From Alphaproteobacteria bacterium (GTDB lineage: Bacteria > Pseudomonadota > Alphaproteobacteria > UBA6615), in assembly GCA_965261975.1 (NCBI GenBank), contig CBDHEC010000050.1:1-64000 (forward strand): a stretch of DNA of 64,000 nt. Direction: 5' to 3'. The notes under the pieces were generated by a model that saw only the letters and a program-made list of their open reading frames with translations, searched no databases and was not told where the DNA came from. Positions 1 to 55,704 of this stretch are shown here, one piece after another; position 1 is the stretch's first letter; each line of letters starts with the position of its first letter. The translations under genes were made by a program, and so were the position numbers.

Positions 1-332
1 TCATCGAGGAGATCGTCGGCGAAATCGACGACGAACACGACATTCCCGTGCCCGGCATGCGCCGCCAGGCCGATGGTACGTATATCGTCGATGGCCGGGT
101 GACGATTCGCGACCTGAACCGAGAGTTCGATTGGGACCTGCCCGATGAGGAGGCCTCGACCATCGCGGGTCTCGTGCTGCACGAGGCGCGCTTTATTCCC
201 GAAGAGGGCCAGAGCTTCGATATCGAGGGCCTGAAGATCGACATTCTGCGGCGTAACGGCAATCAGCTGCGTTCACTTAGAATCACGCGCCGCGCGCCCG
301 AAGCCGACAGCGAAGCGGGCCCGGTGGCCTAG
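1..332 (+). CDS. HlyC/CorC family CBS-domain transporter-associated protein, C-terminal part (5' truncated by window)
   Basis: Frame reads IEEIVGEIDDEHD...YIVDGRVTIRDLNREFDWDLPDEEASTIAGLV, typical of the CorC_HlyC C-terminal domain. Confidence 0.9.
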   Translation, partial: IEEIVGEIDDEHDIPVPGMRRQADGTYIVDGRVTIRDLNREFDWDLPDEEASTIAGLVLHEARFIPEEGQSFDIEGLKIDILRRNGNQLRSLRITRRAPEADSEAGPVA

Positions 333-42781: not shown

Positions 42782-44704
42782 CTAGGCGCGAACGCCGGTC
42801 GCCTCTTCCTCGCGGCCCAGCGCACACAGAACTTTCGAGACGATCCCCGACGCCGTGAGGCCCGCCTGTTCGTACTGAACTTCCGGCTTTTCATGGTCGA
42901 TGAATATGTCCGGCAATGTCATCGGCCGGAACTTCAGGCCGCCATCCAGCAGGCCCGCATTGGCCAGGTCGGTCATTACCTGGGTCGCAAATCCACCGAT
43001 CGACCCCTCTTCCACGGTCACCAGAACCTCGTGCTCGCGGGCCAGACGATGAACGAGATCGGTATCCAGCGGCTTGGCGAAGCGCGCGTCGGCGACCGTC
43101 GTGCTCAACCCGTGGCTGGCCAGGTCCTCAGCCGCAGCCAGACACTCCTGCAGGCGGCCACCATAGGAAAGCAACGCCACGCTCGTGCCCTCGCGCAAGA
43201 TACGGCCCTTGCCGATCTCCAGCGGTGTGCCGGTTTCGGGCATTTCGACGCCGACACCCTCGCCGCGCGGATAGCGGAATGCCGATGGACGGTCATCGAT
43301 CGCCGCCGCGGTCGCAACCATGTTGACCAGCTCGGCCTCATCGGCCGCGGCCATCAGGACGAAACCCGGCAGGCAACCGAGATAGGCGACATCGAAGGAA
43401 CCGTGATGGGTGGCACCATCGGCACCGACGAGCCCGGCGCGATCGATCGCGAAACGTACCGGAAGTCCCTGGATCGCCACGTCGTGGACGACCTGGTCGT
43501 AACCGCGCTGAAGGAATGTCGAATAGATCGCGACGAAGGGCTTGAAGCCTTCCGAGGCGAGGCCGGCGGCAAATGTCACGCCGTGCTGCTCGGCGATCGC
43601 CACGTCGAAGCAGCGGTCGGGAAATACGTTGCCGAAGATATCCAGGCCCGTGCCCGACGGCATTGCGGCGGTCACCGCGACAATCCTGTCGTCCGCCTCC
43701 GCTTCCTTGACAAGGCTTTCGGCAAACACCTTGGTATAGCTCGGCGCGTTCGACTTCGCCTTCACCTGGGCGCCGGTGACCACATCGAACTTCGACACGG
43801 CATGATACTTCTCGTCGCCACCCTTGTCGGATTCGAAGCCCCGACCCTTCTGGGTCACAACATGCACCAGCACCGGAGCGTCCTGCTTGCTGTCGCGTAC
43901 ATTCTTCAACACCGGCAGCAGATGGTCGATGTTATGTCCGTCGATGGGGCCGATATAGTAGAAGCCCATCTCCTCGAACAGCGTCCCGCCGGTCACGAAC
44001 CCGCGGGCATATTCCTCGGCCCGGCGCGCGGCTTCCTCGAAGCTTTTGGGGAACCGGTGGGCCATGTCCTTGGCCACCCGACGCAGGGATCGGTAACTCT
44101 TGGACGAGATCAGGCGCGAGAGATAGGCGCTCATCGCGCCGACCGCCGGGGCGATCGACATGTCGTTGTCGTTCAGCACCACGACGAGGCGCGAATCCAT
44201 GGAGCCCGCATTGTTCATGGCCTCATAGGCCATGCCGGCACTCATCGAACCGTCGCCGATGACGGCGACGACATTGTTGTCGTCCTCGGCAAGGTCACGT
44301 GCGACAGCCATGCCGAGCCCGGCCGAGATCGAGGTGGAACTATGCGCGGCACCGAACGGGTCGTACTCGCTCTCGGCGCGGCGGGTGAAGCCGGACAGCC
44401 CGCCGCCTTGGCGCAGGGTGCGGATGCGGTCGCGTCGGTCGGTCAGAATCTTGTGGGGATAGCATTGGTGGCTGACATCCCAGATCAGCCGGTCGCGGGG
44501 GGTGTCGAAAACATGGTGGAGTGCCACCGTCAGCTCGACCACGCCCAGCCCCGCGCCCAGATGGCCGCCGGTGATCGACACGGCATCGATCGTTTCCTGG
44601 CGAAGCTCGTCGGCCAGCTGCTTGAGCTGGTCCGGCGAAAAATCCGTCATATCCGCCGGAATCCGGACGGTATCGAGAAGTGGTGTTTTGCTGTTTTCGC
44701 TCAA
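42782..44704 (-). CDS. dxs: 1-deoxy-D-xylulose-5-phosphate synthase
   Basis: [56 protein letters not shown]. Confidence 0.97.
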
Positions 44705-44735
44705 CGGACGGGTCCAATCGCGGCCCTGAATACAA

Positions 44736-45644
44736 TCACACGCGCCGATCGATCAAGCGTTCGGCAGCGGCCCGCAATAAATCTGCCTTTTCCCCAAAGA
44801 AATCAAGGTTTTCGACGGCCATTCGGACATGTCTTTCTGCGATCGCCCGCGCGCCGTCCAGGCCGTGGCGCGAGACGAAGGTCGCCTTGCCACGCGCGTT
44901 GTCCTTGCCGACGGCTTTTCCGGTCTCAGCGGCGTCGCCGATCTCGTCGAGAATATCGTCAGTGATCTGGAAGGCGAGCCCGAAATCGGCGCCGAAATCC
45001 CGGAGGTGTCGGCGTGCCGCCTCGTCCGCCCCGGCAGCCACCGCACCCGCCTCGCAAGACCAGGCAAACAGGGCGCCGGTCTTCATCGCTTCGAGCTGCA
45101 TGATTCCGGCATCGTCTTCAACGGGCTGACGTTCGGCCTGGAGATCGAGCATTTGCCCTCCCACCATGCCGTCAGGGCCGCCGGCGCGTGCCAGGCCGAG
45201 CACAAGTTCGGCGCGGATTGCAGGATCGGCGTGGGTCGCAGGGTCGGCCAGTACCTCGAAGGCCAGGGTCAGCAACGCGTCACCCGAGAGGATCGCCGTC
45301 GCTTCATCGAATTTCTTGTGCAGGGTCGGCTGGCCCCGGCGCAGATCATCGTCATCCATCGCCGGCAGATCGTCATGCACCAGCGAATAGGTGTGCATCA
45401 TCTCAACCGCAGCCGCCACGCGCAGCGCCACCTGACGGTCACCATCGCAGATCTCCGCCGCAGACAGCACCAGGAACGGCCTCAGTCGCTTGCCACCGGC
45501 AAGTGCCGCATAGCGCATTGCCTCCCAAAGGTTGGCAATTTCGTCGGCCTGGTCGGACGGGCAGTCGAGGAGAGCGGCTATCGTCGCGTCGACTTCAGCC
45601 GCGACGGCAGCCAGCGCGTCGGCATAGCTGGTGGACACGATCAA
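44736..45644 (-). CDS. ispA: Farnesyl/geranylgeranyl diphosphate synthase
   Basis: [37 protein letters not shown]; start approximate. Confidence 0.93.
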
Positions 45645-45904
45645 TCCGAGGCGACCGGTTCGGTGTCCGGTGTGCCGTCCGCGCCGAGCGATATCTTCTC
45701 AACCCGCGCCTGCGCCTGTCGAAGTTTCGATTCGCAGTGGCGCTTCAGCGCCGCGCCGCGCTCATACGCGGCGATCGCGTCATCGAGCGCGCTGTCGCCG
45801 CCTTCGAGATTGCGCACGATTTCCTCGAGCTGCGCCAGCGCATCCTCGAAAGACATCTTCGCGATGTCGGCCGGAATTTCGACCTTTGGTTCTTCCTTCG
45901 CCAT
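45641..45904 (-). CDS. xseB: Exodeoxyribonuclease VII small subunit
   Basis: MSFEDALAQLEEIVRNLEGG..LDDAIAAYERG. Confidence 0.95.
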   Translation of the reverse strand: MAKEEPKVEIPADIAKMSFEDALAQLEEIVRNLEGGDSALDDAIAAYERGAALKRHCESKLRQAQARVEKISLGADGTPDTEPVASD

Positions 45905-45946
45905 ATTCAATCCTCTACCGGCAGCAATGCGCGCCGTCAAATCGGT

Positions 45947-46873
45947 TCAGCCCATCAGGGCGCCCACATGGGCAGCCGCAGATTCGCCCAAGGCCGTCAG
46001 ATCGTAGCCCCCTTCGAGAGTCGACACGACCCGACCGTCACATACGGCTTCCGCCAAGCGGCGCAGTTCCTCTGTCGCCCAGACAAAGTCCTCCGTCTCA
46101 AGCGACAGCTGCGCCAGCGGATCTCGGCGATGCGCATCGAAACCGGCCGAGATCAAAATCAGGTCCGGCCCGAAATTCCGCATGGCCGGCAAAACCACGT
46201 CACGCATCGCGGTCCGAAAATCATCCGACCCCGCGCCGGGCCATAGCGGCGCATTGGCGATATTGCCATGTGCACCGGTTTCATTCTTGTCGCCCGTGCC
46301 CGGATAGAGCGGCCATTGATGGGTCGAGGCGTAGAACAGCCCCGGCTCGTTCCAGAACATGGCCTGGGTGCCGTTGCCATGATGGACGTCGAAATCCATC
46401 ACGGCGACACGTTCCGCCCCATGTGCCACGCGCGCATGCTCGGCACCGATCGCCACGCTGTTGAACAGGCAGAAGCCCATCCCCTGGCTCGGCTCGGCAT
46501 GGTGCCCCGGCGGCCGCATGGCGCAGAAGGCATTGTCGGCCGCACCTGACATCACCGCGTCGACCGCCTCCACCATGGCGCCCGCGGCGCGCAGCGCCGC
46601 CTCGCCGGATTTTGGCGACATGAGTGTGTCGGCATCGATCCGGCTAACCCCCTCGGTCGGCACCAGATCGAACACCCTGGCCACATAGTCTTCCGGATGT
46701 ACCAGGGTCAGATGTTCGCGCCTCGCCTCAGCGGGAGTGTGGCGTTCGAGACCATCGAAGGCGGGGGCCGCCAGGACCTCGGCGATCGTGCGCAATCGGT
46801 CGGGTGATTCCGGGTGTCCCGATGCGGGTTCATGTTCGATGCAGACCGGGTGGAAATAGAAGCGGGTCGTCAT
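45947..46873 (-). CDS. Histone deacetylase family protein
   Basis: GHPESPDRL, RPPGHHA, GFC, DFDVHHGNGTQ, SAGFDAH, LEGGY. Confidence 0.93.
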   Translation of the reverse strand: MTTRFYFHPVCIEHEPASGHPESPDRLRTIAEVLAAPAFDGLERHTPAEARREHLTLVHPEDYVARVFDLVPTEGVSRIDADTLMSPKSGEAALRAAGAMVEAVDAVMSGAADNAFCAMRPPGHHAEPSQGMGFCLFNSVAIGAEHARVAHGAERVAVMDFDVHHGNGTQAMFWNEPGLFYASTHQWPLYPGTGDKNETGAHGNIANAPLWPGAGSDDFRTAMRDVVLPAMRNFGPDLILISAGFDAHRRDPLAQLSLETEDFVWATEELRRLAEAVCDGRVVSTLEGGYDLTALGESAAAHVGALMG

Positions 46874-46968
46874 GCGCCGACTCCGGATTGATTGGGCATG
46901 GCGCCATTGTAACGGCCGGAACGCCATGGCGACAGGGACGCGATTTGCACCCTAGCCGTTGGCGAAAT

Positions 46969-46984
46969 TGTGACAAACAGCACG
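46969..46984. promoter_or_regulatory. CRP-like site upstream of the RND operon
   Basis: aaatTGTGA-CAAACA-GCACG (two mismatches to TGTGA-N6-TCACA); TTGACA at 47005-47010. Confidence 0.4.
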
Positions 46985-47092
46985 GCTATATCGGTCTTAG
47001 CCAATTGACATATATTGGCGCGCGGCGTGTTCTCCTCGCCAATAGTGCAACCGACGTGTACAGCACCGTATCGTTCCTGGAGATGTTACGTG

Positions 47093-48682
47093 ATGAACGC
47101 TCGAAAACTTCGAACCGCAACCCTCCCCGGCGCGGCCATATTCGTAGCGGGTGCGTTATTCACCGCGCCCGCCCTGGCCCAGACACCCGAGCTTTCGGGT
47201 CCCGCCCAGGCACTCGATACCAACAGTAACGGGTTGATCGAACGCGCAGAGGCGCGCGGCCCGGCGGCCGCCAATTTCGACACGATCGACCTGGACAAGA
47301 GCGACACCCTCGACGGCAACGAACTTCGCCACTTCTTCGCCGGTGGCCCCCGGCCCGAACCCAGGACCGCTGCCGCCAGCACGCCCGCCGAACCACTTGC
47401 CGGACCGGCGGTGGCAATGGATGCCAACAGCAACGGAACCATTGAGAAGAACGAGGCCCAGGGGCCGGCTGCATCCAACTTCGATACGATTGATCTCGAC
47501 AAGAGCGGCACCCTCGACGGGTCGGAACTGCGCTACTTCTTCCGGGGCGGCGAACGCCCCGGCGGCCCGGCGAAGGCCGACAACGCAGACGCAAAACCCT
47601 CGGGCGGCGCGCCGGGTGGACCGCCACCTGCGCGCGTTGTTCTCGACAAGGTCATCGAAGAGCGGATCGGCCAGACCACCCCCGTCGTGGGCCGTATCGT
47701 GGCCCAACAATCCGGGCCGATCGCCGCGCGCATCGGCGGCGCGGTTGTGGAAATGCGGGTGGACGTCGGCGACCGGGTCGCGACCGGTGACGTGCTGGCG
47801 CAGATCGACCGCGAACGCATGCAGCTCGAGCGCGACCGTTACGCCGCCATCGTGTCGCAGCAGCGCGCCAACCTGACGGCCGAACGCGCCGACCTCGAGC
47901 AGACCCAGAACGAACTGGACCGCCTGGAGGGCATTCGTAAATCGGCCGCCTTCTCGCAGGCCCGCTTTGAAGATGCGGTCCAGGCCGTTGCGTCCCAGAC
48001 CGGCTCGGTCGCCGAAACGCGCGCCCAGTTGGCGCAGGCACAAGCCCAGCTGAAGCGTGCCGACCGAGACCTGACGGACACCGAGATTCGCGCGCCCTAC
48101 CCCGGGGTAATCAGCGAGACACACACCGAAATCGGCGCGTATCTGTCGATCGGCAACCCGGTCGCAACCATCATCAACGACCTGAATCTGGAGGTCGAGG
48201 CGGACGTTCCGACCGCCCGGGTCACAAATCTGAGCGACGGGGATGTGGTGAACATCCGAATTCGCGACGGGCAGACCATTCCGGCGACCTTGCGCGCGGT
48301 CGTGCCGGTCGAGAATCCCCGGACCCGGACCCGGCCGGTGCGTTTCACGCCTGATTTTGCCGGCCTGGACGTACCCCTGGCCGACAACCAGAGCGTGACG
48401 GTCCTGCTCCCGGTTGGTGGATCGCGTGATGCCGTCACCGTATCCAAGGATGCGGTCACCCAACGCAACGGACAAAGCATGGTGTTTGTCTCGAACAACG
48501 GGCGCGCCCAGCCGCGCCCCGTGACGACAGGCGAGGCGACCGGCAGCCGGCTCGTCGTGATATCGGGCCTGAAGGTCGGCGACCAGGTCGTGGTGCGCGG
48601 CAATGAGCGGCTGCGTCCCGGCCAGCGCCTCCAGGATGTGGGGGCCAACGGCGGCGCGACGAACGGCAGCGGCGGGGGCTGA
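47093..48682 (+). CDS. RND efflux periplasmic adaptor (MFP) with four N-terminal EF-hand loops
   Basis: Signal peptide APALA-Q; loops DTNSNGLIERAE, DLDKSDTLDGNE, DANSNGTIEKNE, DLDKSGTLDGSE; then VDVGDRV..GDVLA, helical hairpin, IRAPYPG, GLKVGDQVVVRG. Confidence 0.9.
   Translation: MNARKLRTATLPGAAIFVAGALFTAPALAQTPELSGPAQALDTNSNGLIERAEARGPAAANFDTIDLDKSDTLDGNELRHFFAGGPRPEPRTAAASTPAEPLAGPAVAMDANSNGTIEKNEAQGPAASNFDTIDLDKSGTLDGSELRYFFRGGERPGGPAKADNADAKPSGGAPGGPPPARVVLDKVIEERIGQTTPVVGRIVAQQSGPIAARIGGAVVEMRVDVGDRVATGDVLAQIDRERMQLERDRYAAIVSQQRANLTAERADLEQTQNELDRLEGIRKSAAFSQARFEDAVQAVASQTGSVAETRAQLAQAQAQLKRADRDLTDTEIRAPYPGVISETHTEIGAYLSIGNPVATIINDLNLEVEADVPTARVTNLSDGDVVNIRIRDGQTIPATLRAVVPVENPRTRTRPVRFTPDFAGLDVPLADNQSVTVLLPVGGSRDAVTVSKDAVTQRNGQSMVFVSNNGRAQPRPVTTGEATGSRLVVISGLKVGDQVVVRGNERLRPGQRLQDVGANGGATNGSGGG
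47198..47549 (+). repeat. Intragenic duplication of an EF-hand pair (period 204 nt)
   Basis: GPAQALDTNSNG...NFDTIDLDKS...ELRHFF at 47198 recurs as GPAVAMDANSNG...NFDTIDLDKS...ELRYFF at 47402. Confidence 0.9.
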
Positions 48683-48687
48683 TCGCG

Positions 48688-51600
48688 ATGAACCTGATCT
48701 CCGCGTCCATTCACCGGCCGATCGCGGTTATCGCCGTCGTCATCATGATCATCATGTTCGGCTGGGTGGCGCTGCAGCGCATCCCCATCCAGCTGGCACC
48801 GGACGTACGCCAGCCGGTGATCATCGTCGACACCTTCTGGCCGGGTGCGTCGCCGCTTGAGGTCGAACGCGAGATCGTCAACCGCCAGGAAGAAGTTCTC
48901 AAGGGGATCGAGGGTGTGCGCAAGATCGAGAGCCGCGCGCGCACCGGACGCGCGGATATCACGCTCGAGTTTGCGCCGAGCCAGAACATGGACCGCGCGC
49001 TTTTGCTGGTGGCAAACCGGCTCGACCGGGTGAGCGGGTATCCCGAGGAAACCGACGAGCCGACCCTGCGCACGTCGGGCACCGACGACAATCCGATCGC
49101 CTGGTTCGTCCTGCGCCGGCAGGCCGAGAATGACCGGGATCTCCTGACCTATGGCGATTTCCTCGAAGACGTTGTCCAGGAGCGGATCGAACGCATCCCG
49201 GGAATCTCCGGCGTCAACATATTCGGAGAGACCGAACGCGAGATGCGGGTCATCATCGATCCCGAGCAGCTCGCCCAGTTCCGCCTGACAATCGGCGATG
49301 TCGTGGAACGGCTGCGCGCCGAGAATGCTTCGATCTCGGGCGGTGACGTCGAAGAGGGCAAACGCGCCTATGTTGTGCGCACCGAGGGCGATTTCACCAC
49401 GCCTGAACAGGTTCTCGACGTTGTGCTGCGCTCGGATGCCGGGCAGGCGGACGGCCAGATCGGCCGGATCACACTCCGCGATATCGCCCATGTCGAACTC
49501 GGTTACAAGGAGGCGCGGGCGCTCCCTCACAGGTTTGACGAACGCGCCATGGCATTCAACATGACCCGCGAACAGGGGGCCAACGTCCTGACGGTGATGG
49601 ACCAGGTACATCGTGTCGTCGGCGACCTTGCCGAAGGGCCGCTCAACCGGGTCGGCCTGATCGTCGAGAACGTGTTCGACGAGACACTGTATGTGAATTC
49701 GGCCATCTCCCTGGTGCAGCAAAACATTATCGTCGGCGGCATTCTCGCCGCCCTGATCCTGATGCTGTTCCTGCGATCATGGCGCCCGACCCTCGTTGTT
49801 TCGCTTGCAATTCCGGTCTCGGTGATTGGTTCCTTCGTGGCCATGGCCGCCCTCGGTCGCTCCCTCAACGTCATCAGCCTGGCGGGCATCGCCTTCGCCG
49901 TCGGCATGGTCGTCGATGCCGCGATCGTCGTGCTCGAGAACATCTTCCGACTGCGCCAGGAGGGTCACTCCCGCGCCGAAGCGGCGCGCCTGGGTGCCTC
50001 GCAAGTGTGGCCGGCCGTGCTCGTGTCGTCCCTGACCACCGTCATGGTGTTCATCCCGATCCTGGTCATGGAGCTCGAGGCCGGACAGCTGTTCCGGGAT
50101 ATCGCGGTCGCGATCTCCGTCTCCGTCCTTCTGTCGTTGCTGGTCTCGGTGACCGTTATTCCTGCGCTCGCCAACCGCCTGCTCGTGAACAGCGTGGCCG
50201 ATGGCAAGAAAGCAACGCGCATCCCCGTCCTCGATGATTTCGCCCACGGGTTCGTGACCTTCTGGCAGGATTTCACCCGGATGGTCGTGCGATCGAAATT
50301 GCGTGCGCTGGTCGTTGTCGGCGCCATCACGCTCGCATCTGGCGCGTTCACCTGGGCCTTCGCACCGAAGCTCGATTACCTGCCGACCGGCAACCGCAAT
50401 TTCGTGTTCGGCTTCGTGAACGTGCCGCCGGGATACAATCTCGACACGGTCACCGAGATCACCGAGCGCATCGCGAATCGCACCCGCAGCCTCTGGGCAT
50501 CGGAGACAGGCCCCGAATCCGAGGCCGGTGAACCGCCAAAGTTCCAGCGCTTCATCCGCGTACCCTTTGCCGGCCGCGCCTTCATCGGTGGAACATCCGT
50601 CGACCCGAGCCGTGCCTCGGAGCTGATCCCGGTCCTGCAGAACGCGGGGCGACAGGACCCGGGCGTGCTCACCTTCCCGAGCCAGCCCTCGCTGTTTGGC
50701 CGCTCACTGGGCAGCGGCCGCACCATCGACGTCGACATTCGCGGGTCGGACCTCGAGCAGATTTACCAAGTCGCCTTCGATGTCTTTATCCGCCTGGCAC
50801 CCCGCTTCCCGTTCAGTGACGGCAATCAGGTCCGGCCGATCCCGAGCCTGACCTTGTCCGCACCCGAGGTCCGGGTCGAACCGAACCGCCTGCAACTCGC
50901 CGACAATGGCCTGTCGGCCCGTGCACTCGGCCAGGCCGTCGACGCCTTCAATGACGGTTTGCGGGTCGCCGAAATAACGGTCGACGGCAAGCGGATTGAC
51001 CTGACGCTGACCGGCCCGCCCAACATTATCGATCAAACCCAGGGAATCGGTTCTCTGCCGGTCGTGACCCGGGACGGTCGCATCGTGCCGGTCGAGGGGC
51101 TTGCCGACGTAAAAATCACCTCGGGCCCGACCGAGGTCAGGCGCGCCGACCGCGCGCGTACGGTACGGCTACAGGTCCGCCCGAACGCGGATACACCGTT
51201 ACAGGGCGCATTCGAGCTTATTCAGGAAGAAATCGTCAAACCCATGGAAGAAGCGGGCCTGCCCGAAGGGGTCAGTATCCGGCTGACCGGTACGGCCGAC
51301 AAGTTGCTGGAAACCTGGAACGAACTGGTCATCGATCTGATTCTGGCGATCGTGATCGTCTATCTGGTGATGGCCGTCCTGTTCGAGAGCTTTATCTATC
51401 CGCTGATCATCATGCTCACCGTCCCCGTCGCCGCAGCCGGCGGTATCGCGGGGCTGGCGCTATTGAACATCTGGGTTCTGCAGCCCCTCGACATGCTGAC
51501 AATGCTGGGATTCGTAATCCTGACCGGAATCGTCGTGAACAATGCGATTCTGCTCGTCCACCAGACCCTCTATCACATACGCGAAGATGGCATGACGGCA

Positions 51601-51870
51601 GATGATGCGATCATGCTGGCGACCCAGAACCGGGTCCGGCCGATCTTCATGTCCACGCTCACCTCGGTGTTCGGGATGTTGCCGCTGGTCGTGTTCCCCG
51701 GTGCCGGCTCGGAGCTTTATCGCGGGTTGGGTTCGGTCGTGCTGGGCGGTCTTTCGCTATCGGCCGTCCTCACCCTGGCAATCGTGCCGCCGATGATGTC
51801 GATCACCGTCGGCTGGCGTGAACGAAACCGTAACAATGAGGTGGACGCGAGCCCGTCGCCCGCATCCTAG
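48688..51870 (+). CDS. RND efflux transporter permease (AcrB/AcrD/AcrF family)
   Basis: 1060 aa; WPGASPLEVE, GMVVDAAIVVLENI, GIVVNNAILLV, RVRPIFMSTLT. Confidence 0.95.
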   Translation: MNLISASIHRPIAVIAVVIMIIMFGWVALQRIPIQLAPDVRQPVIIVDTFWPGASPLEVEREIVNRQEEVLKGIEGVRKIESRARTGRADITLEFAPSQNMDRALLLVANRLDRVSGYPEETDEPTLRTSGTDDNPIAWFVLRRQAENDRDLLTYGDFLEDVVQERIERIPGISGVNIFGETEREMRVIIDPEQLAQFRLTIGDVVERLRAENASISGGDVEEGKRAYVVRTEGDFTTPEQVLDVVLRSDAGQADGQIGRITLRDIAHVELGYKEARALPHRFDERAMAFNMTREQGANVLTVMDQVHRVVGDLAEGPLNRVGLIVENVFDETLYVNSAISLVQQNIIVGGILAALILMLFLRSWRPTLVVSLAIPVSVIGSFVAMAALGRSLNVISLAGIAFAVGMVVDAAIVVLENIFRLRQEGHSRAEAARLGASQVWPAVLVSSLTTVMVFIPILVMELEAGQLFRDIAVAISVSVLLSLLVSVTVIPALANRLLVNSVADGKKATRIPVLDDFAHGFVTFWQDFTRMVVRSKLRALVVVGAITLASGAFTWAFAPKLDYLPTGNRNFVFGFVNVPPGYNLDTVTEITERIANRTRSLWASETGPESEAGEPPKFQRFIRVPFAGRAFIGGTSVDPSRASELIPVLQNAGRQDPGVLTFPSQPSLFGRSLGSGRTIDVDIRGSDLEQIYQVAFDVFIRLAPRFPFSDGNQVRPIPSLTLSAPEVRVEPNRLQLADNGLSARALGQAVDAFNDGLRVAEITVDGKRIDLTLTGPPNIIDQTQGIGSLPVVTRDGRIVPVEGLADVKITSGPTEVRRADRARTVRLQVRPNADTPLQGAFELIQEEIVKPMEEAGLPEGVSIRLTGTADKLLETWNELVIDLILAIVIVYLVMAVLFESFIYPLIIMLTVPVAAAGGIAGLALLNIWVLQPLDMLTMLGFVILTGIVVNNAILLVHQTLYHIREDGMTADDAIMLATQNRVRPIFMSTLTSVFGMLPLVVFPGAGSELYRGLGSVVLGGLSLSAVLTLAIVPPMMSITVGWRERNRNNEVDASPSPAS

Positions 51871-51915
51871 CAGCGCCTCGCCTTTGATCGGGGACGGCGT
51901 TACGATGGCACGATC

Positions 51916-52615
51916 ATGAGCGCATCCGGAAACAGCCTCGCAGAAATCCCGTTCCTCGCGCCGCTGAGCGAGTCATCTCGCGCCGCGCTCGAGCAGCGCG
52001 CGCGCTGGGTCCGTTATACGGCCAATGACACAATCATCGACCGCGAGAGCGAATCCCGGGACGTGTTTTTCGTGGTCGAAGGCCGGGTGCGGGTGGTGAA
52101 TTTCTCGATTTCCGGACGCGAGATCAGTTTCGACGAAATGGACCCCGGCGGGGTGTTCGGCGAACTCGCCGCACTCGACGGGATGCCGCGATCCGCCGCT
52201 GTTGTCGCACTGGCCGATACCCTCGTCGCGTCTATCTCGCCCGACACGTTCCTGAACCTGCTGCGCGACCACCCGGACCTCGCCATCGGAGTGATGCAGG
52301 AACTGGCAAAGATCGTGCGAGCATCGACCGAACGCATCATGGACCTGAGCACCCTGGGTGCGCTCAACCGGGTGCATTCGGAGATCCTGCGCGAAGCGCG
52401 CGCCCATGCCGAGGACGGCGCCAACACCGCCCGCATCACGCCCATCCCGGTACATGCGGATATTGCCGCGCGGGTCAGCACGACCCGCGAGACGGTTGCG
52501 CGCGTCCTGACGCGATCTCACCAAACAAGGTTTGGTCAAACGCGAGAAAAATGCCCTCGCCATCCTCGACCTCGAACGTCTCGAGGACCTTGTTGAGGAA
52601 GTTCGGGACTTTTAA
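51916..52615 (+). CDS. Crp/Fnr family regulator with cNMP-binding motif, frameshifted near 52511
   Basis: FGELAALDGMPRSA, HTH TTRETVARVL; removing one base restores ...DLTKQGLVKREKNALAILDLERLEDLVEEVRDF*. Confidence 0.85.
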
Positions 52616-52655
52616 GCCCCTGACTCAACTGCATTTTCGATTTTTTTCCCCGCCC

Positions 52656-52671
52656 TGTGACGTCCGTCACT
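52656..52671. promoter_or_regulatory. CRP-type binding site
   Basis: TGTGA-CGTCCG-TCACT (one mismatch); TAAGTT at 52693 sits where a class II -10 element would be. Confidence 0.65.
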
Positions 52672-52749
52672 GGGGAATGTCCCTTCGCGCATTAAGTTTG
52701 GATCAATGGCGACGGATCATCGCCACACACCAACGAAACGGAGCCGACC

Positions 52750-52839
52750 ATGTCACGACAAACCCGCATCAACGTCGCCGCCCTCCTCCTGGCAGCCCCG
52801 ATGGTGATCGTCGGAATGTCGCTGACGTCCGGCTTCTGA
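52750..52839 (+). CDS. Putative 29-aa hydrophobic small protein
   Basis: MSRQTRINVAALLLAAPMVIVGMSLTSGF; GGAG RBS 6 nt upstream; own candidate promoter and terminator. Confidence 0.55.
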   Translation: MSRQTRINVAALLLAAPMVIVGMSLTSGF

Positions 52840-54495: not shown

Positions 54496-55704
54496 TCATT
54501 TCATTTCTGCGACGTGAACGCCTTTCCAATCCTCGGGCGGGGGATCGAAGGAGTAGTGGAAAATACGCTCGGCATAGAGATCATAGAAACCCGTAATAGC
54601 CCCGGGCATTTCCACGCAAACATTGAGCAGGTCCTGCGCCTTGTCCCAGTCGCGGGCCCGATAGGCATCGAGCATACGCACATGCTCGCGTTGCAAGGCC
54701 TGAAATGCCTCGCTGGCCGCCTCGCGGGCATCCCCCACCAACGCATAAATGCGAACCGCCTCTCGCTTGCCCTTTACGGCGATCAGGTCGAGCTCAAGGA
54801 AGGCGAAACTGTCGGCCACCTGAGATTGCGTGGATTCACCGACAATTATCGGCGTCGCATAGGGCTGTGACTGCCCTTCAAGCCGGGCGGCGAGATTGAC
54901 CGCATCGCCGAGCACCGAATAGTCGAAACGCTGATCCGACCCCATATTCCCGACAACGCATTCCCCGGTGTTGAGCCCAACCCCAACCGCTATGGCAACC
55001 GCATCAGGATTTTCCGCGAGGCGCGCCTCATTGACCCGATCGAGCGCGTCCAGCATGGCCAACGCGGCATCACAGGCATGGGCGGCGTGTGCCGGATCGT
55101 CAATCGGCGCATTCCAGAACGCCATGATGCAGTCGCCCATATACTTGTCGATGGTGCCGTCGCGATCCAGGATTTCGGCGGTCAGCGGCGTGAGCAGGCG
55201 GTTGATCAGGGTTGTCAGCGCCTGCGGATCATCACGATGTTCCTCGGAAATGGATGTGAACCCCCGGATATCGCAGAACAGCAATGTCATCTCACGGGTC
55301 TCGCCACCCAGCCTGAGCCGTTCGGGCTGATCGGCAAGCTGTTCGACCAGCGCCGGCGACAGATACTGCCCGAAGGCCGTGCGAATCTGGCGGCGCTGCG
55401 TTTCGGATTGCAGATAGGTGATGAGCGAACTCGACAGATAGACCATCAGCACAACCAGCGCCGGAAATACCGGGTCAATCAGAATTCCGGCGCCGGAAAA
55501 AGCGAACCACCCCGCCGCCACCCCGGCCGTGATCGCCGCCAGGCATACAACCGCACTGGCCGCGACACCGAGTTTGGGAAGCAAAAGCACCAGAAAAATA
55601 CCCAGCAGCGCGAATGCCGCCAGTTCCGCACCCAGGGTCCAGTCGGGACGCGTCAGAAAACTGCCGTTCAGGATCTGCTCGACCAGCTCTGCATGGAAAT
55701 CGAC
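54496..55704 (-). pseudogene. Class III adenylate cyclase, CHASE2-type but N-terminally truncated
   Basis: FCDIRGFT, DKYMGDCIMAFW, DYSVLGDAVNLAARLE intact; upstream VDFHAELVEQILNGSFLTRPDW resembles the end of CHASE2; similarity stops near 55705 with an in-frame TGA at 55768-55770. Confidence 0.75.

Follow-up and report, generated by a model that had tools for sequence, protein, structure and literature searches.

The question raised by this locus is what two pairs of EF-hands are doing at the front of an RND efflux adaptor. The adaptor gene (47093..48682, forward strand, ATG start, 529 amino acids) lies in the window, by which we mean the whole stretch of 64,000 nucleotides that was analysed. 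A sequence-only reading of this DNA had proposed that metal binding by the EF-hands regulates the pump or delivers its substrate. The features discussed are listed in Table 1.

Table 1. Features of the adaptor-permease locus and its neighbours (positions are those of the window).
Feature	Position	Strand	Remarks
dxs	42782-44704		Beyond the ispA-like gene; Pfam
ispA-like gene	44736-45644		Follows the histone-deacetylase-family gene; Pfam
Divergent histone-deacetylase-family gene	45947..46927	-	Pfam
Sec-type signal peptide of adaptor, aa 1-29	47093..47179	+	Read from sequence
EF-hand pair module 1, aa 34-85	47192..47347	+	Canonical loops 47216-47251 and 47288-47323; pLDDT about 85
Linker 1, Pro/Ala-rich, aa 86-101	47348..47395	+	56% Pro+Ala+Gly; predicted disordered
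EF-hand pair module 2, aa 102-153	47396..47551	+	Loops 47420-47455 and 47492-47527
Linker 2, Gly/Pro/Ala-rich tether to membrane-proximal domain, aa 154-179	47552..47629	+	69% Pro+Ala+Gly
RND periplasmic adaptor core, including stop codon	47630..48682	+	Membrane-proximal, beta-barrel and lipoyl domains plus alpha-hairpin
AcrB-type RND permease, 1060 aa	48688..51870	+	ACR_tran 671.7 bits (Pfam)
Crp-like regulator, cNMP-binding domain and HTH	51916..52596	+	Pfam; 45 nt 3' of permease

It could be argued that the EF region and the adaptor are not one protein at all, the host genome being a draft of 59 contigs in which a chimeric assembly or a mis-called gene may occur. Against this, the gene is a single open frame without stops, preceded by a GGAG 11 nt 5' of the ATG, and the nucleotide composition is even across the adaptor region. 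The same architecture, with paired loops, is found in 120 of the 120 homologue clusters listed (46 with one pair, 71 with two and three with three), which were drawn from NCBI, ENA, JGI, Tara and Logan on contigs of up to 5.3 Mb, some of them chromosome-sized, and again in 23 species-representative genomes. These comparative data refute the chimera, to which we give practically no credence and which the sequence-only reading had itself named among the things that would refute it. A literature search found no description of an EF-hand/RND adaptor fusion, and the sequence-only reading likewise knew of no characterised example.

The first 29 residues of the adaptor have a basic n-region and a hydrophobic core, followed by an Ala-x-Ala site preceding Gln30, and the Ala-x-Ala-Gln pattern is also present in orthologues. 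There is no lipobox, since the whole protein contains no cysteine. Adaptors are reported to be anchored in the inner membrane via a transmembrane helix or lipidation (PMC4446572); here there is no cysteine to be lipidated, and the hydrophobic stretch is followed by Ala-x-Ala. Unlike the usual adaptors, this one is therefore apparently unanchored, with a signal peptide that looks cleavable, as had been noticed before; the alternative is that it serves as an uncleaved signal anchor.

Behind the EF region lies a complete MFP, again as first claimed. The adaptor matches the RND_mfp model TIGR01730 with 196.6 bits (NCBIfam, cut-off 94.9), residues 186-513 aligning to positions 5-319 of the 322 in the profile, and it also matches HlyD_3, HlyD_D23 and Biotin_lipoyl_2 (Pfam). 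AlphaFold2 predicts a four-domain core, mostly with pLDDT values of 85-97 and with an alpha-hairpin of 41+40 residues (aa 240-280 and 289-328). The fold was compared using Foldseek, which identified AcrA, MacA, TMexC1 and MexA at E values of 1e-26 to 1e-24, while the nearest solved adaptors by sequence are TriAB (6vej, E 2.3e-35) and MexJ (20yy, 1.4e-22). With TriA/TriB and the MexJ-type adaptors, which share the fold of AcrA, MexA and MacA, this protein has in common the four-domain core, the long hairpin and a gene placed directly 5' of an AcrB-type permease. It differs from them in having two tethered N-terminal EF-hand pairs and in having no outer-membrane factor gene beside it: no TolC-like gene is present on the contig, and the OEP (PF02321) matches in the genome are all on another contig, which bears out the earlier remark that no TolC gene is adjacent.

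The permease ATG begins 5 nt past the TGA of the adaptor, and the gene passes the Pfam superfamily model ACR_tran. No second full-length ACR_tran gene was found in the genome (3.03 Mb, 94.6% complete, 59 contigs). The permease scores 319.8 bits against the HME model TIGR00914 (cut-off 701.45) and the adaptor 121.1 bits against the HME adaptor model TIGR00999 (cut-off 319.3), and with both cut-offs missed a heavy-metal efflux RND system of the CusCBA/CzcCBA kind was rejected. The multidrug HAE1 models (NF033617, NF000282 and TIGR00915) are not reached either, the best being NF033617 with 577.1 bits against a cut-off of 1250. The nearest solved chains of the permease are nevertheless of multidrug type, and for the TM4 region all of the 60 matches listed, out of 80 at E <= 0.001, are multidrug-type, with none named as a metal pump. 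In AcrB and MexB the proton relay consists of an Asp-Asp pair in TM4 and a Lys in TM10. On alignment to MexB, the TM4 Asp-Asp becomes Asp-Ala in this permease, and TM10 has Asn-Asn where MexB has Lys-Asn; both replacements are conserved among its orthologues.

These results bear on one possible function, namely that the EF-hands capture a metal and hand it over to the pump, the candidates being Ca2+, a lanthanide, and toxic mimics, Cd2+ and Pb2+ for example. The model for this would be the heavy-metal RND adaptors, which are reported to bear extra metal domains, N-terminal in CusB and C-terminal in SilB (PMC4446572), and the metal transfer described for CusCBAF (PMC6235853). As in the adaptor studied here, the extra domain of CusB and SilB is reported as a small metal-binding domain at a terminus, which brings it close to the membrane-proximal domain and to the permease (PMC4446572). 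However, CusB and SilB belong to HME systems, whereas both the permease and the adaptor of this pump fall below the metal-pump cut-offs and its nearest solved permeases are multidrug-type. In addition, and unlike the domains of CusB and SilB, the module of this adaptor is an EF-hand pair of the canonical, oxygen-ligand kind, which varies in copy number and is also carried by non-transport proteins. We consider metal hand-over to be quite improbable.

The histone-deacetylase-family, ispA-like and dxs genes form the conserved chromosomal context of the pump: among 80 related loci, a homologue of the deacetylase-like gene lies 5' of the adaptor in 46, and in 78 the gene after the adaptor is a permease homologue, the exceptions being L049 and L080, the latter at a contig end. 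A Crp-like homologue directly after the permease is found in 7 of the 80, and no terminator-like site was found between the permease and the Crp-like gene. A scan of positions 46800-52800 found no promoter-like sites and three terminator-like sites, all within the permease gene, compared with a mean of 3.8 after shuffling. A conserved block upstream was noticed by eye, and is a candidate Crp-type operator.

The EF region itself consists, as originally described, of two duplicated pairs on linkers rich in Pro, Ala and Gly. There are four 12-residue loops (aa 42-53, 66-77, 110-121 and 134-145), all with Asp at position 1, Asn or Asp at 3, Asn or Ser at 5, a hydrophobic residue at 8, an acidic one at 9 and Glu at 12. 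Position 6 is Gly in three of the loops and Asp in the second; a Gly at this position is usual in EF loops and not strict. The two modules are 75% identical, and in the adaptor, as in the homologue clusters, the loops of every pair start 24 residues apart. In Pfam the adaptor exceeds the cut-offs of EF-hand_6 (PF13405, 37.8 bits, cut-off 25), EF-hand_1 (PF00036, 35.3 bits, cut-off 25.4) and EF-hand_7 (PF13499, 32.9 bits, cut-off 30), its best EF-hand stretch being aa 130-152, in module 2. The ligand columns show no variation across 38 aligned modules. Within a set of 39 modules, the invariant positions are 1, 3, 5 and 12 in the odd loop and 1, 10 and 12 in the even loop; at position 9, 77 of the 78 loops have an acidic residue. 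The invariance of the ligand positions therefore indicates that metal binding, most likely of Ca2+, is under selection. The loops look metal-competent, in keeping with the earlier suggestion of Ca2+ or lanthanide binding, their ligand positions being invariant or conservative throughout these 39 modules, and each EF pair would be expected to bind two Ca2+ via its canonical Asp/Asn/Glu loops.

When module 2 was folded alone, it was predicted as a compact unit (pLDDT 88.3) with a short bridge joining the loops, the predicted beta bridge strands being residues 16-17 and 39-40 of the module. In a Foldseek search with this 52-residue model the top rows are all EF-hand-pair Ca2+ proteins, none at E <= 0.001. 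Both linkers are disordered in the AlphaFold2 model, where pLDDT drops under 50 for aa 90-98 and for aa 158-175, and linker 1 differs in length and sequence between homologues.

By sequence, the only solved protein matched by the EF region is lanmodulin (6mi5 and 8fns, E about 3e-7), and the LanM model NF053806 gives 55.5 bits with an E value of 5.8e-15. Lanmodulin is likewise exported and has compact EF-hands, and its 12-13-residue spacer between neighbouring loops is found here too. This likeness speaks in favour of a lanthanide as the metal handed to the pump. However, the LanM score does not reach its cut-off of 135, and the 24-residue loop spacing is not specific to LanM, because small exported EF proteins with the same spacing are present in the sampled Alphaproteobacteria. 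A Pro at loop position 2 is a hallmark of LanM, and is visible in the aligned LanM rows; it occurs in none of the four adaptor loops, and in 0 of the 394 loops of the 120 homologue clusters listed. For lanthanide enzymes of the XoxF type (PQQ dehydrogenase), the best match to TIGR03075 in the genome, which is 94.6% complete, scored 34.1 bits, far short of the cut-off of 480. Moreover, lanmodulin is one four-site domain, whereas the adaptor carries two separate pairs on disordered linkers, and Foldseek ranked LanM only 38th, with a TM score of 0.36. Membership of the lanmodulin family was rejected on the missed cut-off, the missing Pro and the lack of a PQQ alcohol dehydrogenase over cut-off, and the same three results weaken the lanthanide option of the sequence-only reading and count against hand-over of this metal.

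Among 80 species-representative loci, modules are present in 23 and absent from 55, and two could not be read at the 5' end. In the EF-less orthologous adaptors the core is preceded only by the signal peptide plus a short linker. A FastTree phylogeny built from 64 permeases unites the EF-bearing rows in a single group of 23 (SH-like support 98), a count that includes L014, where the EF region reads as a stretch of N, and the remaining 40 rows are all EF-less. On this tree the EF fusion thus has a single origin, as a clade inside an orthologous pump family. The clade consists of Alphaproteobacteria, many from seawater metagenomes according to the record titles, one of which names Defluviicoccus. 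Its modules are kept in every readable member, down to 61-66% permease identity. The number of pairs is much less stable: it changed between one, two and three at least five times on the permease tree, and the four copy-number labels need nine changes where the minimum is three. It is often the neighbouring modules of a single protein that resemble each other most, more closely than orthologous modules do (100% in L023, 98% in L018 and 94% in L016). The TM4 motif of the permease is identical in 23 of 23 EF-bearing and 40 of 42 EF-less rows, and since the fusion arose once, any differences between the two sets of permeases are inseparable from descent. That EF-less orthologues share the permease motifs speaks against metal hand-over.

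The module is also found on other carriers. From a search with a module profile the best 150 representatives were taken, of which 50 match over the full profile length; these comprise 18 adaptors, three DctP proteins, two MBL-fold proteins, one multi-EF protein and 26 short unclassified proteins, so that adaptors make up 18 of the 24 that could be classified. On the DctP (TRAP solute-binding), MBL-fold and dienelactone hydrolase proteins the module is N-terminal, and one EF-bearing genome has it on both a DctP protein and a dienelactone hydrolase as well as on the adaptor. In the host genome and in four of five other EF-bearing genomes it is confined to the adaptor. Six-frame translation of the 3.03-Mb host genome gives 27,736 open frames of 60 aa or more, of which the adaptor is the sole one with two or more canonical loops, and no further module copies were found there. 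A module that also heads DctP, MBL-fold and hydrolase proteins is hard to reconcile with the earlier idea that it delivers the pump's substrate, and its presence on non-transport enzymes tells against hand-over of any metal. A second, unrelated adaptor, P0143, has three such modules at its C-terminus, which, judging by the solved adaptor fold, would also emerge from the membrane-proximal domain. P0143 is a singleton: among 40 matches at E <= 1e-10 only P0143 itself has modules, and its closest relatives have no EF-hand Pfam entries.

A second possible function is that the pump responds to calcium, with Ca2+ occupancy altering the fold of the EF-hands, or their contacts with the membrane-proximal or porter domain, and so tuning assembly or activity. 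In solved pump assemblies the adaptor has its membrane-proximal end beside the permease, and by the model fold it is there that the modules would hang. The retention of the modules across the clade, their invariant ligand positions, the predominance of this adaptor among the carriers and the independent C-terminal fusion on P0143 all point in this direction. There are also precedents in EfhP of Pseudomonas aeruginosa and CaBP of Caulobacter vibrioides, EF-hand proteins that bind Ca2+, are exported by Sec or face the periplasm, and have been reported to act as Ca2+ sensors (PMC9132961, PMC4053335, PMC13171946). These are separate proteins, whereas the module here is fused to the adaptor and to other enzymes; the comparison with them is at the level of generic EF-hand similarity. 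On the other side, the module is portable to unrelated carriers, the permease motifs are the same in EF-less orthologues, and a variable copy number on disordered, unconserved tethers disfavours a fixed allosteric geometry. The Ca2+ affinity of canonical EF loops usually lies in the micromolar range, against about 10 mM Ca2+ in seawater, and this would leave a calcium switch no dynamic range in the marine members. A calcium-responsive pump is therefore unlikely, though it retains some plausibility. The bolder form of the proposal, in which the tethered pairs are a built-in cation sensor whose occupancy by Ca2+ or a competing metal controls assembly or activity of the sole RND pump, we regard as somewhat more doubtful still. 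The gating function inferred in the sequence-only reading thus fares poorly in the face of disordered tethers, changing copy number, EF-less orthologues and other carriers.

The reading that we tentatively prefer, at a little short of an even chance, is that the module is a portable, probably constitutively Ca2+-loaded periplasmic appendage, with a role independent of its carrier, and that the pump works as it does in the EF-less orthologues. The starting point is a genuine, vertically inherited two-gene pump, with a TriAB/MexJ-type adaptor and an AcrB/MexB-type permease. In one lineage a portable EF-hand-pair module was gained between the adaptor signal peptide and the membrane-proximal domain, and was afterwards duplicated in tandem. 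In marine hosts the Ca2+ of seawater would keep the EF sites filled all the time, and with the sites permanently filled the modules should be constitutively folded, tumbling independently near the inner-membrane end of the adaptor, with no switch. The favoured role is that of a Ca2+-triggered folding unit, which would aid or stabilise the exported protein during its emergence from the Sec channel, or would dock it to a periplasmic partner common to the different carriers. It is from the distribution of the module only that we infer this generic role: its occurrence on unrelated periplasmic proteins makes a general calcium-loaded appendage likelier than a calcium switch for the pump. There are points against an appendage. 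The EF-less orthologues show that this pump can do with neither an anchor nor a tag. The module is found far more often on this adaptor than elsewhere, and its clade-wide retention fits a pump-related benefit; the C-terminal modules of P0143 and the extra metal domains reported on metal-pump adaptors (PMC4446572) count on the same side.

What the locus adds can be seen against the usual description of periplasmic adaptors, with four domains and a lipid or helix anchor. To our knowledge, extra metal-binding domains have been known only in heavy-metal pumps. Here, a clade of Alphaproteobacteria has a conserved RND pump (the sole one, in this genome) whose apparently unanchored adaptor carries one to three EF-hand pairs of canonical type. 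Regulation of the pump by the modules, if it occurs, would amount to a new way of controlling efflux, and if the cation-sensor reading is true, it would be the first tripartite-type pump with an adaptor directly metal-gated by an EF-hand domain. If, as is more likely, the module is a portable Ca2+-loaded tag, it would represent an undescribed periplasmic use of EF-hands in bacteria, and would provide a small Ca2+-binding unit that is modular by nature and is a relative of lanmodulin.

The adaptor gene runs from an ATG at 47093, preceded by GGAG 11 nt upstream, to a TGA at 48680-48682, and encodes 529 residues. A TTG start at 47015 was rejected, as it adds merely 26 non-conserved residues and is used by no homologue. 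The protein contains no cysteine and therefore no lipobox. Its two EF-hand-pair modules are 75% identical, and each has two canonical 12-residue loops whose starts are spaced 24 residues apart. The protein scores above the Pfam cut-offs for three EF-hand models as well as HlyD_3, HlyD_D23 and Biotin_lipoyl_2, and reaches 196.6 bits on NCBIfam TIGR01730 against a cut-off of 94.9. Of the 27,736 six-frame open frames in the whole genome that reach 60 aa, no other holds at least two canonical EF loops, and thus the loops are no chance pattern. AlphaFold2 gives a model with a mean pLDDT of 81.3, in which both modules (about 85) and the core, with its hairpin of 41+40 residues, are confident, and both linkers fall below 50. 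Foldseek groups this model with AcrA, MacA, TMexC1 and MexA (E 1e-26 to 1e-24), and a sequence comparison puts TriAB (6vej, E 2.3e-35) and MexJ closest among solved adaptors. The sequence-only reading had described a cleavable-looking signal peptide without lipobox, two EF-hand pairs, linkers, a complete adaptor core and a permease starting 5 nt past the adaptor stop, and all of these are confirmed here. The review PMC4446572 has adaptors normally anchored by a helix or lipid; unlike these, the whole orthologue group described below apparently has no such anchor.

Features of the adaptor protein and of the genes around it (residue numbers are those of the adaptor)
Feature	Location	Strand	Remarks
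Histone-deacetylase-family gene, ispA-like polyprenyl synthetase, dxs	42782-46927	-	upstream of pump
Adaptor gene	47093-48682	+	
Signal region	residues 1-29		two Arg and one Lys, hydrophobic stretch, Ala-x-Ala site before Gln30
EF modules 1 and 2	residues 34-85 and 102-153		52 residues each
Pro/Ala/Gly-rich linkers	residues 86-101 and 154-179		between modules; after second module
Complete adaptor core	residues 180-529		
AcrB-type permease gene	48688-51870	+	
Crp-like cNMP-binding regulator	51916-52596	+	45 nt after permease
TPR protein, 426 aa	53144-54424	-	between Crp-like gene and cyclase; TPR_19 over Pfam cut-off
Class III nucleotide cyclase	54496-55590	-	near Crp-like regulator, downstream of pump

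The fusion is not peculiar to this contig. A homologue search of 90% clusters found 1128 proteins at E <= 0.001 from 8000 scored candidates, and paired EF loops stand ahead of the adaptor core in all 120 of the clusters listed (one pair in 46, two in 71, three in 3). Their sources include NCBI, ENA, JGI, Tara and Logan, with contigs of up to 5.3 Mb, and where a name is given it is 'efflux RND transporter periplasmic adaptor subunit' or, at JGI, 'RND family efflux transporter MFP subunit'. With one genome taken per species, 536 stretches encode a relative. Among the best 80 of these, 23 carry EF modules; in 55, cultured Kiloniella species and Magnetovibrio-labelled genomes among them, the core is preceded by just a signal peptide and short linker; and two are unreadable (L014, with a run of N, and L082, with its 5' end cut). 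Of the 80 loci, 78 have a permease homologue behind the adaptor (all but L049 and the contig-end locus L080) and 46 have an HDAC-like gene upstream of it, mostly with ispA and dxs; the TM4 motif is identical in 23/23 permeases of EF-bearing loci and 40/42 of EF-less loci. Since they have these features in common, the two kinds of locus are orthologues. The HDAC-like gene is absent from all 13 EF-bearing loci of a second sub-clade (L016-L027 and L033) and from L030.

In a midpoint-rooted FastTree phylogeny of 64 full-length permeases, the EF-bearing rows, with L014 included, cluster together as 23 sequences (local support 98). L028, which branches off just outside this group, has no EF modules, and neither do the remaining 40 rows; this argues for a single real change in EF presence, and the second change counted on the tree is an artefact of L014. 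An even sample of 401 genomes from the class yielded strong module matches (E <= 6e-13) in 6, that of the window among them; these matches all lie within open frames of 446-557 aa, and 8 further genomes have weak matches only, in small frames of 129-292 aa. The fusion is therefore real, old and restricted to one clade. It is worth adding that two of the weak matches, L092 (G076, 164 aa) and L094 (G374, 158 aa), are small exported four-EF proteins that look lanmodulin-like by eye, L094 having Pro at loop position 2.

Across 39 modules, the first loop of each pair has invariant Asp, Asn, Asn and Glu at positions 1, 3, 5 and 12, with position 9 always acidic; in the second, Asp at 1, Gly at 10 and Glu at 12 are invariant, and position 9 is Asp in 38 of 39. 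Mean column identity is 74% in the modules against 45% over the whole adaptor alignment, and the modules are thus at least as constrained as the core. Glu at position 12 with Asn at 3 and 5 is the ordinary Ca2+ pattern of EF-hands, so on these residues Ca2+ is most likely the ligand. Folded alone, the module is predicted with pLDDT 88.3 and a short bridge linking both loops. Foldseek with this short model gave nothing at E <= 0.001; EF-hand-pair Ca2+ proteins fill its top rows, with lanmodulin in 38th place. The only solved protein that the module sequence picks up is lanmodulin (6mi5, 8fns; E about 3e-7), but the adaptor scores 55.5 bits on the NCBIfam LanM model, far below the cut-off of 135, and none of the 394 loops in the 120 homologue clusters listed has the proline that lanmodulin carries at position 2. 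No PQQ alcohol dehydrogenase scores above its cut-off in the genome of the window.

Position 2 of the second loop is Cys in 21 of the 39 modules, paired with a second Cys a few residues past the exit helix, which suggests a periplasmic disulfide staple in one EF-bearing sub-clade. The two-Cys pattern is seen in L016-L027 and L033 and in proteins P0097-P0121, and also in the DctP- and MBL-borne modules. The modules of the window adaptor have no Cys.

The sequence-only reading had gone further and proposed a calcium-gated pump. The fusion on which it was built stands, but the behaviour of the module disfavours the gate. The tethers of the modules are disordered, and neither their length nor their sequence is fixed among homologues. 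Copy number (one, two or three pairs) has also shifted repeatedly within the clade, the permease tree needing 9 changes among four copy-number labels where the minimum is 3. In several proteins the modules resemble each other more closely than their orthologues (L023 100%, L018 98%, L016 94%), a sign that they were duplicated or converted recently; the two modules of the window's lineage are older and position-specific.

The module is moreover portable. A profile built from 38 modules and searched against 1.84 billion representative proteins gave 5664 matches at E <= 0.001, of which 641 reach E <= 1e-10. Among the best 150 of the 5664, 50 match the full profile: 18 adaptors, 3 DctP-type TRAP solute-binding proteins, 2 MBL-fold proteins, 1 multi-EF protein and 26 short unclassified proteins (at most 213 aa, some visibly fragments). 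One of five other EF-bearing genomes searched has the module at the front of two further proteins, a DctP protein (67.6 bits) and a dienelactone hydrolase (47 bits), and in every carrier read (P0134, P0226, P0227, P0233, P0241, L112 and L113) it directly follows the signal peptide. That the same module heads such different proteins argues against a pump-specific switch. In favour of a pump-related role, the adaptor is by far its most frequent carrier, and the sole one in the window's genome and in the other four; the module is retained in every readable clade member; and P0143 (617 aa, a singleton cluster on one 105-kb contig), an unrelated, helix-anchored-looking adaptor, has three related EF-pair modules at its C-terminus, which in the adaptor fold also exits from the membrane-proximal domain.

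The permease scores 671.7 bits on ACR_tran and is the sole full-length match in the genome, a 3.03-Mb draft made up of 59 contigs and 94.6% complete, the two others being short and weak (30.8 and 25.6 bits). NCBIfam scores and solved relatives place it outside the heavy-metal family, and it is an atypical multidrug-type pump. TM4 (49915-49920) has Asp-Ala where MexB and AcrB have the Asp-Asp proton-relay pair, and TM10 (51538-51543) has Asn-Asn in place of the Lys-Asn of MexB. Both changes are kept in EF-bearing and EF-less orthologues, so the pump family as a whole may couple protons differently. That EF-less orthologues share the permease motifs speaks against a pump-specific switch. As the sequence-only reading noted, no TolC gene is adjacent: OEP/TolC-family matches sit on another contig. 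In the best of these (G000:C51:101340-102741, L002-L004), the likely outer-membrane partner, the gene is split over two overlapping frames, of 370 and 159 aa, by a frameshift or else by an error of assembly; C51:170495 holds a second, weak match.

Around the pump, the intergenic region 46960-47050 upstream of the adaptor contains a block conserved in the four closest relatives. Within it lie two possible operator or promoter elements: the inverted repeat CCAAT-N8-ATTGG (47001-47018) and, near 46969, a stretch containing TGTGA. No terminator-like site separates the permease from the Crp-like gene, and such a regulator follows the permease in 7 of the 80 related loci. The 426-aa TPR protein also has a weak SlipAM-like match, under the cut-off.

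Full-text searches, with subscription journals largely outside their reach, found no description of an EF-hand/RND adaptor fusion and no paper combining 'EF-hand' with 'membrane fusion protein' and 'RND'. In PMC6610971 'EF-hand' and 'periplasmic adaptor' are separate proteins, and the one efflux mention in the lanmodulin paper PMC13128445 is of vesicle-mediated efflux of rare earths. Judged by title, further papers deal with a Xanthomonas mutant screen, an RTX toxin and transcriptomes of Rhizobium bacteroids. The literature found on bacterial periplasmic EF-hands, within the same reach and in the portions available, includes several items on stand-alone EF-hand proteins or lanthanide biology, and the adaptor fusion is absent from those portions. 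PMC4446572 does describe extra metal domains at the N- and C-terminus of heavy-metal pump adaptors, a parallel that favours a pump-related role.

Seawater contains about 10 mM Ca2+. Typical EF sites would thus be saturated in marine members, leaving little room for signalling. The predominance of adaptors among carriers, the retention throughout the clade, P0143 and the heavy-metal adaptors keep two other readings alive: that the tethered modules regulate the pump, which we consider unlikely, and that they hand over metal to it, which seems very improbable. Our preferred reading, held tentatively, is that a portable Ca2+-binding EF-hand-pair module was fused once to a housekeeping RND pump's adaptor, which apparently has no anchor, and has been conserved there. 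It would most likely serve as an appendage permanently loaded with Ca2+ rather than as a gate.
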